Shown: positions 16,546 to 26,902 of the stretch, in pieces
Numbering within the stretch: the first letter of the stretch is position 1
Layout of the letters: each line of letters starts with the position of its first letter
DNA from: Candidatus Heimdallarchaeota archaeon
GTDB lineage: Archaea > Asgardarchaeota > Heimdallarchaeia > Heimdallarchaeales > Heimdallarchaeaceae
DNA: 64,000 nucleotides
Assembly: GCA_030603365.1 (NCBI GenBank)
Contig: JAUVXV010000003.1
Location: 128,001-192,000, forward strand
Direction of reading: 5' to 3'
Position numbers and translations under genes: made by a program
Notes under the pieces: generated by a model
What the model saw: only the letters and a program-made list of their open reading frames with translations
Databases searched by the model: none
What the model was told of the DNA's origin: nothing

Positions 16546-16926
16546 CTATTCCAGGATTTCGAGATCTACAGATTCTATTGTTAAATGTCTGATGTTAAGA
16601 TGGGTATCTCTTGAACCACATTTTGAACATTTGAAATTGTATGCAAACTCTTTATCACCTTCCTCAGAAGGTTCTCCTTTAAACTCGCACTCCAAACAGA
16701 TGATTTCTGCAGGTAATTTTAGTAATTCTAGATGAGCATTTTGAAATAATTCTATTTCAGTTATAATAATTTTGAATGCGTCCTGTAATAATTCGGGAAT
16801 TATCATTTCATAAGGATCTGCAGATACAGTCACTTTGTTAACTTTTAACGCTTTATGCTCAATCGCAATCTGCTTAACTTGATTGACAATTGCAGATGCT
16901 AGGCTGTATTCATGCATTTCATTCAA
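16546..16926 (-). CDS. hypA: Hydrogenase maturation nickel chaperone HypA
   Basis: MHEYSLA, CLEC...CSKCGS. Confidence 0.93.
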   Translation of the reverse strand: MNEMHEYSLASAIVNQVKQIAIEHKALKVNKVTVSADPYEMIIPELLQDAFKIIITEIELFQNAHLELLKLPAEIICLECEFKGEPSEEGDKEFAYNFKCSKCGSRDTHLNIRHLTIESVDLEILE

Positions 16927-16927
16927 C

Positions 16928-17581
16928 CTATTGTATTTTGATTCCTAAAGAAGCAATAAGCTCATCAATACCAGTTATTTGTTTTGCACTTGTACACAAA
17001 ACATCCATGTTAGATTTGATTTTCTTTGCGTCTTCAACCAAAACTTGAGAATCAAAGCCTAAACCATCTAGGTCACATTTGTTAATGACAGCTATCTGAG
17101 CTCCCTTGAAAATAATGGGGTGTTTCTTAATAACATACTCCCCTTCAGTAATACTGACAACAACAATATTTTTCTGAGCACCAACATCCCATGCAGCAGG
17201 ACAGATTAAGTTCCCAACATTTTCAGTAAAGAAAATATCATAATCATCAACATTTATTTTATCTAACTCATTTTTGATGAGTTTTGCATTGAGATGACAT
17301 CCTCCTCCAGTGTTTATTTGAACAGTATCTACCCCCTTTTTTGCAATTCTATCTGCATCAATTGTTGTAGCAATATCACCGTTTATGACAAATATTCTAA
17401 AATAAGGTGAAAGTTTTTCTGCAATTCTTTCTAATAAAAATGTTTTACCAGCACCAATAGAACCCATAATATTGAAGAAGAGCTTGTTTTTGCTTTTCAT
17501 CATCTCTCTAATTTCATCTGCAAGTATGTCATTCTGTAGATATGCGGGTTTCTTTACAGAAATTTTCTTCTCTTGTGTCAT
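16928..17581 (-). CDS. hypB: Hydrogenase nickel-incorporation GTPase HypB
   Basis: GSIGAGKT, DADRI, QINTGGGCHL, ENVGNLICPA, INKCD, TSAK. Confidence 0.95.
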   Translation of the reverse strand: MTQEKKISVKKPAYLQNDILADEIREMMKSKNKLFFNIMGSIGAGKTFLLERIAEKLSPYFRIFVINGDIATTIDADRIAKKGVDTVQINTGGGCHLNAKLIKNELDKINVDDYDIFFTENVGNLICPAAWDVGAQKNIVVVSITEGEYVIKKHPIIFKGAQIAVINKCDLDGLGFDSQVLVEDAKKIKSNMDVLCTSAKQITGIDELIASLGIKIQ

Positions 17582-17712: not shown

Positions 17713-19491
17713 ATGATGAAAAGATTAAGAAAGATGAAAAGAGCCGTTTCACCAGTTATTGCAACCGTTCTTTTAATAAGTTTAGTAGTTGCTGCAAGCG
17801 CAATGGTCTATTTTATTGTTGTACCATTATTGAAGGGGAGCGCGAGCGTGAATTTTGTAACTACACAATGGTTTGACAGTGATGGTGACGATGTTTCTGA
17901 TCTAGTGTATATAACTTTACAGAATACGGGATCAGCAAGTTCAAAAATTTCGAATATTACATTAACAATAGATAATGATGCTTTACCAGAAAGAACAGTA
18001 ATTGATAATGCAGAGCTGATAGTTGAAAAACTTCCCTTAACGCTTGATGTCACAGCAAGGATGGATATAGCTATTTCTTTTGATCCATCTGAATATATCG
18101 CAGTAGGCGATAATACTTTCAAGATTTTGCTTACATACAGTGATGGTCTTAGTTCAATTGCACCTGAAAACTTGAATCATATTAGTGTTATTTACCCATT
18201 AGAAATGACAGTTTTGAATCCTGTAAACGGTAGTTGGGTAAATGGTATTATTGATCCTCAAGTATTGGTGTCAGGAGGATATTTACCATCAGCAGTTACT
18301 TATGATTTCTTTCTACCTGGTCAAATTATTGCTTTAAACGACCAACCAGTTGCTAGTAATATTAATTCTGAAAGTTATGCTGATGATATTGGATATGAAA
18401 TGATTTTTTCAATTGATGACTCATTAAACCAGTCAGCTGTTTCAACAAACATCTTCAATATTGATAACAAAGCTATAGGTGTCACTTTAAGTGTGAGTTC
18501 AACAAGTATCAATCAAGGAGAATCCTTAAACGCAACATGGGTATGGGATGAACTTGGAGGAGCTCCTGTAATAAATCAGACACTTGTTTTATCGGGTGAT
18601 AGTTATGGTTCAGATTCAGTTTTTACTGCTTTAGATGATACTATAACAGCCTTTGTTCTTCTAGGAACCCAAACAGCTACAATAGCAGAGGACGACTTTA
18701 CACTTACTCTTTATGTAAAAGATGCAGTAGGTAATTTGAATAGTTCTGGTAAATCATTCTCATTAGTTGATATTCTTGCCCCAACATCTGAAATTCTCTC
18801 TCCTGTGAATGAAACCTATGGTATAGAGGGTATAATGAACATTGAAGTTTATGCTGCTGATCCAACAGGAATTGATACAACAAATTTCGATATTTACTTC
18901 TTCAGTCTAACAACATCTTTCTACTATTTGTACCAGAATGTTGTAGAAGGACTAGCGAACTATAATACCATAGATAGAACTTGGGAATTAGATTTCAATA
19001 GTTATCTACTCCCAGATGATGATTATGCAATGGTAACTTTTGTATATGATGATTCTGATGCAAAAAATGTAAAAACTGTTACTCATATACTCTCAGTAGC
19101 TAATCCAAAGCTTACATTATCTGGAGCAGTTGGTGTAAGAGGATTCTTCTCTCGAAGTACATTCAGTTTTTTCCTTACAAATAACTTACCAGACGATATC
19201 ACAATAACCCAAATCTATATTGATTGGGAACCAGATAACAGAGCAGATTATATCTATGAAATGAGAGATAACACAGATGGTACAATATGGTTATCTTCAG
19301 CAGGACAACCTTATGCTCAAGAAAGTGTATTGCCCGTAAATGGTGGTACAGGAGCAGTTTTAAGCGGAGGTTCAATCCATAAACTGACAATTCTATTTGA
19401 CTACTTTGATCGAACAGATAAAGCTGATTTCGAAATAAGGTTCTTTATTCAAGAATTAGGTGTATGGCAAATTTTCTTTGTAGATCAATAA
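17713..19491 (+). CDS. Large archaeal type IV pilin/archaellin-like protein with Ig-like beta domains
   Basis: Class III signal peptide KRA|VSPVIATVLLISLVVAA; beta-rich acidic body (YVKDAVGN, EVYAADPTG); no C-terminal anchor. Confidence 0.85.
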   Translation: MMKRLRKMKRAVSPVIATVLLISLVVAASAMVYFIVVPLLKGSASVNFVTTQWFDSDGDDVSDLVYITLQNTGSASSKISNITLTIDNDALPERTVIDNAELIVEKLPLTLDVTARMDIAISFDPSEYIAVGDNTFKILLTYSDGLSSIAPENLNHISVIYPLEMTVLNPVNGSWVNGIIDPQVLVSGGYLPSAVTYDFFLPGQIIALNDQPVASNINSESYADDIGYEMIFSIDDSLNQSAVSTNIFNIDNKAIGVTLSVSSTSINQGESLNATWVWDELGGAPVINQTLVLSGDSYGSDSVFTALDDTITAFVLLGTQTATIAEDDFTLTLYVKDAVGNLNSSGKSFSLVDILAPTSEILSPVNETYGIEGIMNIEVYAADPTGIDTTNFDIYFFSLTTSFYYLYQNVVEGLANYNTIDRTWELDFNSYLLPDDDYAMVTFVYDDSDAKNVKTVTHILSVANPKLTLSGAVGVRGFFSRSTFSFFLTNNLPDDITITQIYIDWEPDNRADYIYEMRDNTDGTIWLSSAGQPYAQESVLPVNGGTGAVLSGGSIHKLTILFDYFDRTDKADFEIRFFIQELGVWQIFFVDQ

Positions 19492-19520: not shown

Positions 19521-19568
19521 ATTAATACTTTCGAAAAGCTAATAATATTACAGTTACATCTCTAACCT

Positions 19569-20468
19569 ATGAAAGTTACCTACGATAGATATCCAGAGCT
19601 ACCTAGATTTCTAAAAACTTTCGTAGAATTCACTGCTACGTCTTTAGCTACAAGATCTTTCATACTTTATGGCGATGTCGTTCTGGACGATTTTTCCAAA
19701 AGATACAGTAAAATCAATGTTATAATAATCCTAGAAAAAGGTCTATGGGAAAAGGATTTTAACGAGCTTGATTCGATTATAGATAAGCTTGCAGCTATGA
19801 ATGAAGATTTTTCTAAGTTACTTCGAGCTTATTTTGTTCCTTACACAATGCTGGAGAATCCGAGGATTATTCATCAAGATTTAGAGGGTATGATAGTAAG
19901 AGATCTTAAACAAGAGATAATTAATCAGTATCCTCTTTCTCAAACTGATGATTTCATGATTATGAAGAAAGGAGAAGTTTTGTATGGGGAAGATCTACGA
20001 AGTCATTTTCCAATTCCTCCATTAGAGTGTTTCTGGCAACAATTTCTAGCAGAAGTACCCAACATTGAAGAAATAGCCAAAATCTATCCCTTCCAACATA
20101 GTCAATCTCCCAATTATGATCACGCTACTAACTGGATACTTTACTTCTCAAGGGTTTTATATTCAATACAGAATAATGATGTAATTGGTAGAATGAAAGG
20201 TGCATATTGGTTTTCAAACGAATATCTCAATAAGTTAGGTGATTTTGTTGTAGAAGTAGCAAGTTGTAGACAACGAAATATTTCACTCTCAAGTGTTATG
20301 GGAGTGGTTGAGAACAGTAGAGAATTGATGTTATTCTGTATAGAAAAAGCATTTAAAATAAAAGGAATTCATACACCGGATCTAAAATCTCTCTATAAAG
20401 AAGACCAGGGACATGCTAATTTTAGTAGATTCTTTATGGAGATAAGAAATATAATAGAGAATATCTAA
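19569..20468 (+). CDS. AadA/ANT-like nucleotidyltransferase-fold protein, catalytically degenerate
   Basis: ILYGDVVLDDF...SKINVIII aligns to LYGS...GDF...SDIDxLV; GEVLYG; ILYFSRVLYSI...IGRMKGAYW is DUF4111-like. Confidence 0.75.
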   Translation: MKVTYDRYPELPRFLKTFVEFTATSLATRSFILYGDVVLDDFSKRYSKINVIIILEKGLWEKDFNELDSIIDKLAAMNEDFSKLLRAYFVPYTMLENPRIIHQDLEGMIVRDLKQEIINQYPLSQTDDFMIMKKGEVLYGEDLRSHFPIPPLECFWQQFLAEVPNIEEIAKIYPFQHSQSPNYDHATNWILYFSRVLYSIQNNDVIGRMKGAYWFSNEYLNKLGDFVVEVASCRQRNISLSSVMGVVENSRELMLFCIEKAFKIKGIHTPDLKSLYKEDQGHANFSRFFMEIRNIIENI

Positions 20469-20475
20469 GTATTCA

Positions 20476-21846
20476 ATGATGAGTCAGCGAGAAGATGTGC
20501 TCAATTCATTTATTGATATGCTACAGGTAATTTTTCCTGAAATTATATCAGTTTATGAATTTCAAAAAGAAATAGCACTCTTCGATAAAATTCTAGAGAA
20601 CTGTAAAGGATTAGTTATAATAATCTCTGAAGCTGATTACAGCTTAGAAAACCTAATACTTGTTGATCTTATTTATGATAAAATACAGGATGAACATGGC
20701 TGGGAAGAAGGAGTAAGATTAGCAAATTCTTTCTCAAGAAGCTATATTCGTACTGTCAATAATCTCTGGCACATCAATATAATGAATAATCACTGTCTTT
20801 TGCCCGAAGATCAAATTAATTTAAAGAATACAAGAAAACTTCTACATGGTACAAATATTATCCCTACTATCCCTTTTCCTCATAATGAAGAAGAAATACT
20901 AAAGATTAATGCTAACTTTACTAGAGAAGAAGCTCTAGAGTTATTCAATCAATCAGATCAGTATGTACCTCTCATTAATCCTGATTGTTGTTGGATGAGA
21001 TATGATTTCACAATCAATCATTCTCTAGTGCAGATTCTGGATGATCAATTCCTAAAAATGAAAGATAGGATCCAACCTGAAAAGAATGCTCATATTTATG
21101 GTCGTTATGGGGGGTCTGGTAAGACACAAATCATCTATTCTCTAATAAAAAAATGTAAAGAATTATCTCTTCCATTGATTTATAGAACTGAATTTTGGAA
21201 AGGAGAAGATGGAAAATATAAGGAGATAGAATTCAATCCAGAAAATTCCGCAGAAAGAGTTACTGAATGGGTAATTGAAAAATCTCCAGGAAGTAGATTT
21301 ATTTTATTTTTAGATGAAATAGAAGTAAATATTCGTCAGTTAAAAGAAAAATTAAGCGTAAAGTATCCTGGGGATGAAATAAACTTACTTATTATTTCTG
21401 GAGGAAAGGAAATTTCTCCCTTTATTGATGACAGTTTCGATGTTTATGATATCTCTAAAGAGTTCCCATTCAATGAATCACAGTTAAAAGAATTAGTAGA
21501 AAAACTAATAGAAAAATCAAACATAGCTTCAGATATTTTTCCAGAAGAAATTATTGATATCATCGTTACCAAAACAAAATTGTGGAACCACTCTTCAATA
21601 CGAAGAACTCCAACTTCTGTAATATTATCTAGTTCTCTTGCATTAGCTGAATCAATTAAGATAGCTAATGAAAATAATGAAGAAATTCAAATTAAACCTG
21701 AGTTAGCAGAAAAATGGTCGCTACTTAGTACATCTCCTTGGTATCAGAAATATGATGAGTTACATGATGTACATGCAGAATATTTGGTTTTTAATGGAAA
21801 GAAGTATGTGGATGTTGATAAACACTATCACCATCCTTTACCTTAG
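20476..21846 (+). CDS. P-loop ATPase with an N-terminal degenerate nucleotidyltransferase-like domain
   Basis: HIYGRYGGSGKT, ILFLDEIE; the N-terminal ~140 aa resemble the upstream gene. Confidence 0.65.
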   Translation: MMSQREDVLNSFIDMLQVIFPEIISVYEFQKEIALFDKILENCKGLVIIISEADYSLENLILVDLIYDKIQDEHGWEEGVRLANSFSRSYIRTVNNLWHINIMNNHCLLPEDQINLKNTRKLLHGTNIIPTIPFPHNEEEILKINANFTREEALELFNQSDQYVPLINPDCCWMRYDFTINHSLVQILDDQFLKMKDRIQPEKNAHIYGRYGGSGKTQIIYSLIKKCKELSLPLIYRTEFWKGEDGKYKEIEFNPENSAERVTEWVIEKSPGSRFILFLDEIEVNIRQLKEKLSVKYPGDEINLLIISGGKEISPFIDDSFDVYDISKEFPFNESQLKELVEKLIEKSNIASDIFPEEIIDIIVTKTKLWNHSSIRRTPTSVILSSSLALAESIKIANENNEEIQIKPELAEKWSLLSTSPWYQKYDELHDVHAEYLVFNGKKYVDVDKHYHHPLP

Positions 21847-23033: not shown

Positions 23034-25535
23034 ATGGAAGTAGAAAAAGGAAAAAAAATTCACAGTGTGTTATCAACTATTTTCTATTACACATTTGTAT
23101 TGATTATAATCGCAGTTTTTGTTTTGTCTTTAGTAATTGAAGAGATCACACTTCTTAACAATATACTATTTATCTTTCTAATTGTAAGTTCAATAGTCAT
23201 TGTCTTTTATCTAACAGTTCAAATGCTGAGATATAACCTGACTGTGAACAAAAAAATACAAGCAGGTATATTCTTTGTAGTAATTGGTTTCCTTCTGATT
23301 CTTCTTTCAACCAGCAAACAGCTCTCATTTATTGAAAGCTTAGATCTTGACTTTCTTGGATATGATTTCTTTGTGTATTGGGGGATTGGATCTGTTGTAT
23401 TCGGGATATTTGTTGAACTTACATTTCTAGATCAGTTTATCTGGAAACTATTTGTGCAACCTATTAAATATCTCTGGAAATTAACTGCAAAATTTGCTAA
23501 ATGGGTTAGAAAAAATTGGTTAAACATTATTCTCTATACACTAGATTTAGCTTCTCTTGCAGGTATAATCTATGTGGCAATTTTCTGGAGCACAGATTGG
23601 TGGAAGATAACTGTTCTTTCAGTGAGTTGTGTTTACCCTTTAGTCCATCACCACAAAAGAATCTGGAAAGCGATAAAATTCATAGTTATTGATATAATTT
23701 ATGAATTTTTCAAAAAGGTAGGAGAATTCATTAAACAAGTTTGCACATCAATTTGGAATGCGATAGTTAGTTTTGTCAATTTAGTCTTGAAACACTGGTT
23801 GTCAATTCTCAAAGAGATTTTGAGGTTGATGGGTGCTGCAGGAGGGGGAGTGATGATTTATTTCGGTGCAACATTGGTGGAATATAGGTTTTTGATAGGA
23901 TTAGGAATAATAGCTATAGTTGTTAGTCTATTATTCACAAGAAAAACCATTCTAACAATGTTATGGGATCTACTTTCCTCAATTGCATCTTTCTTCTGGG
24001 ATAAGCTAATTTCTTTTATGAAAACTATTCTTGAAAAATGGTGGCCTATCTTTAAAGAATTCTTAAGGCTTGTTGGAGCTGCTGGAGGAGTTTATCTTAT
24101 CTATCATGGTTATGTTTTTGATCAGTTTTCCTATTTCATTGGAATTGGAGTTGCACTTATTCTAATTTCATTAATATTTACTAGAAAAGCTGTCTTAGTC
24201 TGGCTTGGAAATGGAATTTCGAAGTTTTGCACTTATATCTGGGAAGAAATACTCAAACCTTATTATGCTAGAATTATCAATGAAATTATAAGATTAATTT
24301 TTGTAGGAGGAGGGATTTATCTAATCTACTTAGGAGTAATCAAACAAATTTATTATTACTGTATTTACATAGGCATAGCAATTATCTTACTAGTAGAAAT
24401 TATAACAAGAAAAGCAGTGTTAAAGAAAATCTATTCTGTTATGAAAAACATTGCACTGGCATTCTGGGATTTATTAGTGTGGTTGACAAAACCATTCCGC
24501 TTCTTATGGGAAAAGCTTGTAGCAGTAACTAAATTCTTGATAAAAAACTGGTTCAAGGTAGTCCTATATTTATTAGACCTAGTTGCTATTGCAGCAATTA
24601 TCTATCTATCTATTACATGGAATTCTGAATGGTGGTATATTATCCTACTTTTCATTAGTTGTTGTTACATCCCTGCTCATCACTATAAACTAGTTTGGAA
24701 ATCTATCAAGTTTATAGGGATAAATATCTTCTATGATCCTTTCATTCGTTTTGTCAATTTAATTGCAGACTTCTTCAAAGCTTTATGGAATGGTCTAGTA
24801 GATATTGCTAAATTCTTAAAAGAACATTGGTGGACGATTTCCAAAGAAATTCTAAGGTTAATAGGAGCAACAGGAGGTATTACTCTTATAGTTTATAGTT
24901 TCATTCTAGAAGATTTCTCGTATTTAGCCTGGATAGGAATAACAGTTGTTCTTGTTAGTGAAATATTAAGTAGAAAAATTGTATTGAAAAAGATATATGA
25001 ATTCTTCAAGGCTATCTTTGTTTTCATCTTTGAAAATAGAGTGATTATTTCAAGGGTACTAGGATTCTTAGCAGCTCTTGCAGGTGTTATTATTCATTTT
25101 GTCCTTGACTATTTTATAACCTTCATTCTTCTTGTATCTATAGGAGGAACATTTGTACTTTTTGCACATTTCATATATCATCCAAAGAAACTGTGGGAAT
25201 TTTTGGTTAGTATTCCTAAAACATTGCATAAGATTTTAGTTACTATCTGGCTTACAATAAAGACTGGGTCAGTTTACATATATCAAAATGGTATTCGTTT
25301 AATATTGCTGATTGTAATGATATTCACTTTTATTTATGGTCTCTTTGTAGTTTTCAATTTTGATTTCATTGGTATTTTTGAGAATATAAGTGCTGCAATC
25401 AGAATCTCACTTGGTGCATTATTTGTAGTTGTAGCAGTTGTTGCTTTCATCCTTTTACGCAGAGAATTGAAGAAATTACGAACAGGTAGCTCAAAAGTGC
25501 TAGCTCAACAAATTCGAGAGAGGTGGAAGCAATGA
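23034..25535 (+). CDS. Large polytopic membrane protein built from internal repeats (TM hairpin + amphipathic helix)
   Basis: 4 x (K/N)E.(L/I)RL....GG repeats; 2 x KNW...YxLDL...WW...HH.K.xWK.IKF repeats. Confidence 0.85.
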   Translation: MEVEKGKKIHSVLSTIFYYTFVLIIIAVFVLSLVIEEITLLNNILFIFLIVSSIVIVFYLTVQMLRYNLTVNKKIQAGIFFVVIGFLLILLSTSKQLSFIESLDLDFLGYDFFVYWGIGSVVFGIFVELTFLDQFIWKLFVQPIKYLWKLTAKFAKWVRKNWLNIILYTLDLASLAGIIYVAIFWSTDWWKITVLSVSCVYPLVHHHKRIWKAIKFIVIDIIYEFFKKVGEFIKQVCTSIWNAIVSFVNLVLKHWLSILKEILRLMGAAGGGVMIYFGATLVEYRFLIGLGIIAIVVSLLFTRKTILTMLWDLLSSIASFFWDKLISFMKTILEKWWPIFKEFLRLVGAAGGVYLIYHGYVFDQFSYFIGIGVALILISLIFTRKAVLVWLGNGISKFCTYIWEEILKPYYARIINEIIRLIFVGGGIYLIYLGVIKQIYYYCIYIGIAIILLVEIITRKAVLKKIYSVMKNIALAFWDLLVWLTKPFRFLWEKLVAVTKFLIKNWFKVVLYLLDLVAIAAIIYLSITWNSEWWYIILLFISCCYIPAHHYKLVWKSIKFIGINIFYDPFIRFVNLIADFFKALWNGLVDIAKFLKEHWWTISKEILRLIGATGGITLIVYSFILEDFSYLAWIGITVVLVSEILSRKIVLKKIYEFFKAIFVFIFENRVIISRVLGFLAALAGVIIHFVLDYFITFILLVSIGGTFVLFAHFIYHPKKLWEFLVSIPKTLHKILVTIWLTIKTGSVYIYQNGIRLILLIVMIFTFIYGLFVVFNFDFIGIFENISAAIRISLGALFVVVAVVAFILLRRELKKLRTGSSKVLAQQIRERWKQ

Positions 25536-26902
25536 AGGAAGAAAAATCAATAGATATAGATACAGGAGATAAAACACCTGAATCCATTGAGAAAAATCCT
25601 GTGATAACAACACTATGGATAGGTTTCACTATCTCTGTTCTTAGTATCATAAGTATATTGATTTTAACATTAGCATTCAATCAAACTTATGATGATTTGT
25701 TCTTCAGAATAATCTTAGGTATTTTTGTAGTAGGGGTTCTGTTTTTATTCTTTGCTTTAATTCTACGTAGATTAAGAAGAAAGGGAATCGATTACTTTGT
25801 AACAGGAGCAATAACAGCCTACATAGGCTTCATTTTAGTGTCTTTTCCAGCTATTCTATTTGCAGTAGGTGTGACTTCTTTCGAACGCGATTATATCTTC
25901 TATATCTTAATGGCAACAGGTGTGATATTGATTATCTTTGGTTTCTTTTTTGAAGCATATGATCTTAATTTGAAGTTAATTGCTTTGATGAAGAAATTAA
26001 AAGAAGCATTGAAAAGAATCTGGAAGAAGATTAGCTGGAAACTATTCCTTTCTCCATGGAATTTATTGTCTGTGGCTGGAATAACAATAATCATTCTTGC
26101 AGCTGTAAAAGTGTTAGAGTTTATCAACCCATTATATTGGTATTTGATAGGTGGAGGATTAATTCTAATAAACATAGTCTGGCATTTCAGAAAAGAAATA
26201 GCAGAAATCCTTGTTAACCTTGGCAAAGTAATAACAACACTATTCCAAGCATGGTGGAGAGCTATAAAACAGATTCCTCAGATTATGAAGAAATTTGGAA
26301 TATGGATATACACCAAAACAATAGAGATAATAAAAGTAGTAGGGAAGGCAATAAAATTCTTTGTTATTAGAAATTATTTGATTCTATTTGTATTTGGAAT
26401 TTCTATGTTCATTGTTTTGCATTATCTGGGAATATTCAATCTCGAGATTCGTATCGCATTATCTTCCTTAGTATGTGGAATTGCTATAGTTAAGCCTATC
26501 ATAGATTGGAGAGAACATTTTGGAGAAGACATCAGTACTGCCAGGATGTACCTCTATAAAACAGCTCAGAAGACTAAGCGTATTTTCCAATATAGAAAAC
26601 TAACAAGATGCCCAAATTGCAATAGACCTAACGAAATTCTTAGAGAGTATTGTTGGAATTGTAATGAGTTATTACCAAAATGTATGATTTGCAGTAGTAA
26701 GGTTGAGAAAGGGACAAAAATAGCTAAATGTCAATTGTGTAATAACATCTTTCACATTGACCATCTAGAAACATGGTTAAGATTCAATACTAAATGTCCA
26801 GTCTGTAAAGAAACAATAGATAAGAAAGAAGAAGAATTCCTTCCTGAATCTACATATGAAGAAGAGTTGATTGAAGATATAACTCCAACTCTTGATCCAT
26901 GA
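25532..26902 (+). CDS. Polytopic membrane protein with C-terminal Zn-ribbon + RING-variant domain (putative membrane E3 ubiquitin ligase)
   Basis: About 8 TM; CPNC..CWNC then CMIC-x12-CQLC-x4-HIDH-LETWL...CPVC; ATGA overlap with the upstream stop, preceded by GAGGTG. Confidence 0.85.
   Translation: MKEEKSIDIDTGDKTPESIEKNPVITTLWIGFTISVLSIISILILTLAFNQTYDDLFFRIILGIFVVGVLFLFFALILRRLRRKGIDYFVTGAITAYIGFILVSFPAILFAVGVTSFERDYIFYILMATGVILIIFGFFFEAYDLNLKLIALMKKLKEALKRIWKKISWKLFLSPWNLLSVAGITIIILAAVKVLEFINPLYWYLIGGGLILINIVWHFRKEIAEILVNLGKVITTLFQAWWRAIKQIPQIMKKFGIWIYTKTIEIIKVVGKAIKFFVIRNYLILFVFGISMFIVLHYLGIFNLEIRIALSSLVCGIAIVKPIIDWREHFGEDISTARMYLYKTAQKTKRIFQYRKLTRCPNCNRPNEILREYCWNCNELLPKCMICSSKVEKGTKIAKCQLCNNIFHIDHLETWLRFNTKCPVCKETIDKKEEEFLPESTYEEELIEDITPTLDP

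Follow-up and report, generated by a model that had tools for sequence, protein, structure and literature searches.

Nucleotidyltransferases (NTases) of the ANT(3'')(9)/ANT(9) type, such as AadA of Salmonella and AAD(9) of Enterococcus (PDB codes: 5g4a, 7uy4, and 6sxj), consist of a Pol-beta-type NTase domain and a helical AadA_C domain. The hG[GS] motif of NTases contacts the phosphates of the nucleoside triphosphate (Ser-36 in AadA), and the D-x-D pair of AadA (Asp-47 and Asp-49) binds two Mg ions. Eukaryotic pseudo-NTases, such as the NF45/NF90 DZF heterodimer and MiD51, have a Pol-beta-type fold from which the carboxylates were lost, and are kept for binding or dimerisation. To our knowledge, Pol-beta-type NTase pseudoenzymes are known mainly from eukaryotes. 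In AadA, the catalytic base is Glu-87, Arg-192 is critical for the Mg-coordinating conformation of ATP, and Trp-112 and Asp-182, as well as His/Asn-185, form the substrate determinants (PMC6065190). The present study concerns two adjacent genes in a stretch of 64,000 nucleotides (nt) from a Candidatus Heimdallarchaeota archaeon (contig JAUVXV010000003.1), which is called the window (G+C content 32%; coordinates are counted from its start). Gene 1 (19569..20468, +) encodes a protein of 299 residues with the predicted two-domain fold of AadA/ANT(3'')(9), and gene 2 (20476..21846, +) encodes a protein of 456 residues with an N-terminal alpha/beta domain, an AAA+ ATPase module, and a short His-rich C-terminal hairpin. 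In the window's lineage, gene 1 is best read as a pseudoenzyme.

The AlphaFold2 model of gene 1, made with 17 relatives in the alignment, is of high confidence (predicted local distance difference test, pLDDT, 92; predicted template modelling score, pTM, 0.86). It comprises an NTase N-terminal domain of the Pol-beta type, a helical AadA_C-like domain, and a C-terminal extension of about 30 residues. When the model was searched with Foldseek, AAD(9) and AadA came out on top (E about 1e-8); AadA, and not the minimal NTases (MNT) or HalB, is the closest fold by far. Among the 17 family members, ten match Pfam AadA_C (best E 8.6e-5) and five match NTP_transf_2 (best E 4.1e-6). The window protein itself reaches 12 bits with AadA_C (E 0.26), below the cut-off of 22.2, and does not match NTP_transf_2. 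Since both the Foldseek top matches and the Pfam matches of the family point to AadA, the AadA/ANT-like pattern that the first-pass annotation had traced from end to end is borne out at the level of the predicted fold, with some 30 C-terminal residues in addition. Scans of both proteins against Pfam, NCBIfam, and PADLOC gave nothing significant, PDB sequences searched with profiles for the two families and for the N-terminal domain of gene 2 yielded nothing meaningful, and no alignment to AadA was obtained with single gene 1 orthologues that have the canonical motifs (P0020 and P0037). Compared with the ANT(3'')(9)/ANT(9) enzymes, gene 1 is only 9-14% identical in sequence, carries the C-terminal extension, and is archaeal, chromosomal, and paired with an ATPase gene. 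There is no reason to expect that it modifies antibiotics.

The catalytic signature of the NTases is replaced in gene 1. A reference profile of 25 canonical archaeal minimal NTases was built for this analysis, and hhalign of the gene 1 family with this profile was weak (E 8.6e-4, probability 23%) but in the correct register: G35 is aligned to the Gly of GS, and S47-x-I-[D] to S-D-I-D, which confirms the placement of the two replaced motifs. In the position of hG[GS], the window protein has G35-D36 (GGC GAT; 19671..19676, +), in a family column occupied by D, G, or C. In the position of the Mg-binding D-x-D, it has K48-I49-N50 (AAA ATC AAT; 19710..19718, +), where its sisters have x-I-K and deeper relatives have x-I-D or D-I-D. 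Both replacements had been read from the sequence at exactly these coordinates. The third carboxylate or catalytic base is expected, by eye, in the strand beta-3 region LLRAYFVPY (19818..19844, +), and on the beta-3 of the model (residues 85-91) acidic residues are absent from all family members. The first-pass annotation had found an Arg at this third acidic position; the absence of an acidic residue from this strand holds family-wide, and the identity of the residue at the position seems to need correction. When LLRAYFVP is aligned by eye with the beta-3 segment of AadA, which we take to be ILRAVEVT, the equivalent of Glu-87 appears to be F89 rather than R86.

Three residues, S47, D128, and K210, are invariant in the gene 1 family and correspond by eye to Ser-46, Asp-130, and Lys-205 of AadA, which contact the phosphates or the ribose. 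The equivalent of Arg-192, also mapped by eye, varies across the family (R, G, Q, S, and F). Since the equivalents of Ser-46, Asp-130, and Lys-205 are invariant and the Mg-binding positions are replaced, the residue pattern appears to be that expected of a protein in which nucleotide contact would be retained and metal catalysis gone.

The loss of the motifs can be followed within the family, for which a motif table of 39 relatives and a maximum-likelihood tree of 38 were prepared. Except for one V-I-D, the basal lineages of the genus combine G-G with D-I-D or E-I-D, which is the canonical NTase signature. G-D is found in a derived, well-supported clade of 30 clusters, 20 of which have [T/S/D]-I-D. 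Nested in the G-D clade is the window's group of 10 clusters, monophyletic at a support of 100/97, in which the second Asp is gone from every member; the position is N in the window protein, which is the first branch, and K in the remaining nine, and a codon path of GAT to AAT to AAA/AAG fits this change. In G035, a separate relative, the motif reads S-T-I-N, as against S-T-I-D in the sequences closest to it by identity, and at the motif positions G-C and T-I-E are found in the genus of Heimdallarchaeum aukensis. Overall, D-x-D is kept in only 4 of the 39 relatives and E-x-D in 4 more; therefore, the catalytic carboxylates are not conserved across the family as a whole.

Gene 1 is nevertheless under strong purifying selection and is not decaying. 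Within the genus, its nonsynonymous divergence (dN) from the window gene is 0.085-0.19, and omega (dN/dS) is about 0.04-0.08 where computable, a rough value as every comparison is saturated in synonymous divergence (dS). When gene 1 and gene 2 are compared over the same genome pairs within the genus, gene 1 has the lower dN, and 62 columns of gene 1 are invariant across the 17 relatives, down to 47% identity. Since the motif loss coexists with strong purifying selection, the best reading for the window's lineage is that of a pseudoenzyme, in which canonical catalysis appears to be lost and function retained. The first-pass annotation remarked that the loss of catalysis looks selected, a fair statement insofar as function has persisted past the loss.

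The model of gene 2 is also confident (pLDDT 90). Its AAA+ module (residues ~160-424; 20953..21747, +) shows an alpha-beta-alpha core followed by a four-helix lid. Over 25 relatives, R210, G213, G215, K216, and T217 are invariant in the Walker A motif GRYGGSGKT (residues 209-217; 21100..21126, +), and D280 and E281 are invariant in the Walker B motif FILFLDE (residues 275-281; 21298..21318, +), which follows the pattern hhhhDE. The Walker A with a one-residue insertion and the Walker B LFLDE noticed in the first reading of the sequence are thus both present. The P-loop, Gx5GKT, is one residue longer than the consensus GxxxxGK[ST], the difference lying between the first and the last Gly. An invariant aromatic hairpin (YRTEFWK; Y-R-x-x-F-W-K) is located past beta-2. 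Judged from the model, gene 2 belongs to the AAA+ ATPases, its Walker motifs are intact apart from the longer P-loop, and it likely binds and hydrolyses ATP.

In comparison with archaeal and eukaryotic ORC/Cdc6 and classic AAA+ proteins (1w5s, 2qby, FtsH, and p97), gene 2 differs by its longer P-loop, by the aromatic hairpin past beta-2, and by an N-terminal domain of 158 residues that is unique to it. The matches of ORC/Cdc6 to gene 2 stop at residue ~418-429, and only 32 residues are present past the lid; unlike ORC/Cdc6, gene 2 has no winged-helix domain, and a His-rich hairpin of 32 residues stands in its place. The top rows of the AAA+ matches span only about two Z units, and rows under 1 Z apart count as tied; the clade assignment is thus left at AAA+. 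The C-terminal 32 residues, with the stop codon (21748..21846, +), are predicted to form a beta-hairpin with a conserved HDVHAEY...HY-HPLP. Along 21763-21843 (+), the conserved His, Asp, and Glu residues (H-D-V-H-x-E ... H-Y-x-H-P-L-P) lie on this hairpin, where a metal or a peptide may bind.

The N-terminal domain of gene 2 (residues 1-158; 20476..20949, +) has the modelled order a1-b1-loop-b2-long helix...helix-strand, which mirrors that of the gene 1 N-terminal domain. A helix-strand-Gly-Pro motif of gene 1 (residues 127-150; 19947..20018, +), found by profile comparison, is echoed in gene 2 (residues 111-135; 20806..20880, +), where E111, D112, N115, and G125 are invariant. By hhalign of the family profiles, residues 108-135 of gene 2 and 123-150 of gene 1 align with a score of 30.1, which was reached by none of 100 block-shuffled controls (mean 16.7, standard deviation 3.1, maximum 25.5), so the echo that had been noticed between the two proteins is beyond chance. 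With realignment, the domain and gene 1 are collinear over 147 columns (E 0.0019, at a probability of only 14%). The language-model neighbours of residues 1-160 are all NTP_transf_2/Polbeta clusters; their score of 0.80 is below the reliability mark and is also reached by one third of shuffled proteins, so that it serves as a lead only. On the first two strands of the domain, G[GS] and acidic residues are both absent throughout the relatives, and if the domain is an NTase fold it would therefore be dead family-wide. The domain is thus possibly a stripped, dead NTase-like domain, and an origin from an NTase appears somewhat more probable than the contrary. The first-pass annotation had described two inactivated NTase folds; this stands for gene 1, where the fold is found and the residues are replaced, and for the gene 2 N-terminus an NTase fold is suggested by the element order, the 28-column profile match, and the sub-threshold neighbours.

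Both families were sought in 400 Asgard genomes, of which 30 are Heimdallarchaeaceae. Gene 1 is present in 26 of the 30 and elsewhere only as fragments or weak NTase-core matches; gene 2 is present in 29 of the 30, with one full-length homologue of 34% identity in a sister family. Both families are essentially confined to Heimdallarchaeaceae. The two genes are adjacent in 24 of the 26 genomes with both, and in genera g1 and g2 their order and strand are always the same, with gene 2 at 53% identity in g2. In the 21 genomes in which both matches reach the junction (G000 included), 12-27 nt separate the last matched codon of gene 1 from the first matched codon of gene 2. In the window, both reading frames are intact and seven bases lie between the TAA of gene 1 (20466-20468) and the ATG of gene 2, as had been described. 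Since this spacer (20469..20475, +) is only 7 nt long and has no T-run, co-transcription is likely, and the genes look like a two-gene transcription unit.

One possible scheme for the pair, which is favoured here tentatively and at a probability a little short of even, is that of a housekeeping, lineage-specific pair in which NTase-type modules serve as binding or adaptor parts. The pair would be Heimdallarchaeaceae-specific, single-copy, and probably co-transcribed. Gene 1 would be a pseudoenzyme derived from an NTase of the AadA/ANT(9) type, with the whole two-domain fold and many invariant polar residues kept, the Mg-binding aspartates gone, and the catalytic base lacking, and most likely it would still bind a nucleotide, or a ligand of similar kind, but not transfer it. 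Gene 2 would be a catalytically competent AAA+ ATPase, the N-terminal domain of which is probably a further stripped, non-catalytic NTase-like module. The dead NTase-type modules may then link a ligand signal to the ATPase, with gene 1 as an accessory rather than an obligate partner. A complex prediction for gene 1 with full-length gene 2 scored 0.00 (mark 0.32), which counts neither for nor against binding. The heterodimer suggested by the first-pass annotation is neither supported nor contradicted.

Several observations weigh against this scheme or are neutral to it. Those on gene 1 concern its orthologues: since the basal lineages retain GG with D-I-D or E-I-D, some orthologues may be active enzymes, and the function of the family is maybe not purely non-catalytic. 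The first-pass annotation had relied on orthologues of gene 1 not retaining D-x-D, and this holds only in part, as both positions are acidic in 8 of the 39 relatives. The gene 2 N-terminal domain matched nothing in Pfam or among PDB sequences and did not match the 25-NTase profile (E 0.38; the positive control, gene 1, was matched weakly, E 8.6e-4), and a search of its profile against 1.84 billion representatives gave eight matches, all from its own family. When NTase families are skipped, the next language-model neighbours (DUF6932) score nearly the same (0.79). When the complete model of gene 2 was compared with known structures in PDB Foldseek, VIA wide, and ESM Atlas, the results were filled by AAA+ proteins and are uninformative on residues 1-158. 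As to the ATPase, the arginine finger of AAA+ proteins lies where the helix between beta-4 and beta-5 begins. Unlike classic AAA+ proteins, gene 2 has neither a helix nor a conserved Arg there; the loop is about 10 residues long in the model, K311 is invariant in it, and no canonical arginine finger is found between these strands in the model or in the 25 relatives. Therefore, oligomer-dependent hydrolysis by gene 2 is uncertain. Invariant R237 or R376 might stand in for the finger.

The partnership itself is also weakened by the distribution of the genes. In genus g5, the two genes lie 254 kilobases (kb) and 192 kb apart in two complete genomes (Heimdallarchaeum aukensis and a congener), both intact and in unrelated neighbourhoods. 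In genome G015, the order HypA-HypB-pilin-like-gene 2 is kept and 1.6 kb occupy the slot of gene 1; tblastn of this gap for a decayed gene 1 gave short non-collinear matches only (E >= 0.025), and no copy of gene 1 was found elsewhere in this assembly, which is 89% complete. The gene 2 homologue of G080 (34% identity, another family) has no gene 1 beside it, and fused gene 1-gene 2 proteins (>525 residues) were searched for and not found, which is weak evidence. Given the separation in g5 and the slot of G015, gene 2 does not require gene 1 next to it, and probably does not require it anywhere in the genome. The adjacency expected by the first-pass annotation is therefore found in the 24 genomes, broken in one genus, and lost with gene 1 at the syntenic site in another, and coupling is likely but not obligate.

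These observations bear most directly on the possibility that the two genes are functionally independent, held together by a conserved neighbourhood, with the shared motif as a relic of an old duplication. The pair sits inside a larger conserved block of M24 peptidase, HypA, HypB, a pilin-like protein of ~600 residues, the pair, and membrane proteins, so that a part of the conserved adjacency is plain synteny; the HypA-HypB-pilin-like neighbourhood is conserved in three genera. The unlinked genes of g5, the persistence of gene 2 without gene 1 in G015 and in family f6, and the wider spread of gene 2 would fit independence as well. However, the spacing is operon-like and the order and strand are constant across two genera with a protein sequence divergence of about 50%, the specific motif common to both proteins is found nowhere else, and both families have nearly the same narrow taxonomic range. 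Independence, the chief alternative, is regarded as somewhat unlikely, though it deserves serious weight. A role of the pair in anti-virus defence or as a toxin-antitoxin-like module, comparable to MNT-HEPN or NTase-plus-ATPase systems, is very improbable, since the pair is single-copy in nearly all genomes of the family, lies in a conserved housekeeping neighbourhood, and matches no PADLOC model with either protein at E up to 10. The single copy per genome and the conserved neighbourhood speak against a mobile element too. Its neighbours are HypA, HypB, the pilin-like protein, and membrane proteins, with no HEPN or nuclease partner, and the closest fold of gene 1 is, as above, neither MNT nor HalB.

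It has also to be considered that gene 1 may still be an enzyme with a rearranged site, which uses, for example, the gained D36 with invariant D40, D41, and E56, or Lys in place of a metal, and modifies a small molecule or a protein. On the tree, the change from G36 to D36 coincides with the loss of the acidic residue at position 48, possibly a relocated carboxylate; D40, D41, E56, D104, E106, and D128 are all invariant and acidic; and very strong purifying selection is typical of enzymes too. However, the covariation of D36 and position 48 represents one or two events and is not a statistic, and the window's clade has also lost D50 (N or K), so that the canonical site is left with no more than one carboxylate. 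The strand of the catalytic base is non-acidic in every member, and the residue that corresponds by eye to Arg-192 of AadA (PMC6065190) varies. A rearranged enzyme is therefore improbable. A joint mechanism that goes beyond the favoured scheme can be described as follows: the pseudo-AadA would bind a nucleotide or second messenger metal-free, with Lys for the Mg-binding Asp, dock NTase-to-NTase on the gene 2 N-terminal domain, and gate the ATP cycle as an Asgard-specific nucleotide-sensing switch. As a whole, this mechanism is unlikely. If true, the switch would be a prokaryotic counterpart of the NF45/NF90-type pseudo-NTase heterodimer of eukaryotes; gene 1 would share with NF45/NF90 and MiD51 a Pol-beta-type fold without catalytic carboxylates, a likeness of concept. 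The living lineages of the family would then also preserve the successive steps by which an enzyme (GG/D-I-D) became a pseudoenzyme (GD/x-I-K).

The surroundings of the pair may be described briefly. A TATA-like A/T-rich box (19541..19550, +), read by eye ~20-28 nt 5' of the ATG of gene 1, is the putative promoter of the pair, and a T-rich tract 3' of the upstream gene precedes it. A convergent gene for a membrane protein ends 11 bases past gene 2. HypA and HypB (hydrogenase nickel-insertion; 16546-17581, -) are encoded directly upstream on the opposite strand, with no functional link evident. Between HypB and gene 1, in three genera, is the pilin-like protein, which in the window has 592 residues (17713-19491, +) and an N-terminus resembling that of archaeal type IV pilins (Pilin_N, E 2e-4), and is otherwise unmatched in Pfam. 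At 23034-26902 (+), a large membrane protein built of repeats precedes another membrane protein, which has a terminal Cys/His-rich RING-like finger.

Two further observations come from other genomes. G348, which belongs to another Asgard family, carries a gene 1 N-terminal domain in a truncated copy (152 residues; L011:4751-5209, -) with R-D and S-I-N at the motif positions, and an open reading frame of 176 residues (L011:4160-4690, -), by eye like a Vsr-type very-short-patch repair endonuclease, starts where the copy ends; it may be the insertion that cut the gene 1 copy. In H. aukensis, an IS605 OrfB / Cas12f-like TnpB gene (L001:912-1799, -) lies ~6 kb from the relocated gene 2 and is absent at the same place in the related contig L004.

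No paper on an Asgard NTase/AAA+ pair or on such a pseudoenzyme was found in the literature. Neither gene family has been described before, and both folds are of known kinds; what is new is the stepwise loss of the NTase motifs within one family, together with an AAA+ ATPase with an orphan, possibly NTase-derived N-terminal domain. The architecture of gene 2 is undescribed, since this domain has no sequence relatives outside its own family among the 1.84 billion representatives. If the two proteins do not work together, a pair of lineage-specific proteins remains; if they do, they would form a new regulatory ATPase module in a lineage that is studied for the origin of eukaryotic cell biology. 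On a single tree, the gene 1 family presents its motifs in a succession of states, canonical at one end and fully non-acidic at the other, under strong purifying selection, and its orthologues offer a natural series for studying how a transferase becomes a binding protein.

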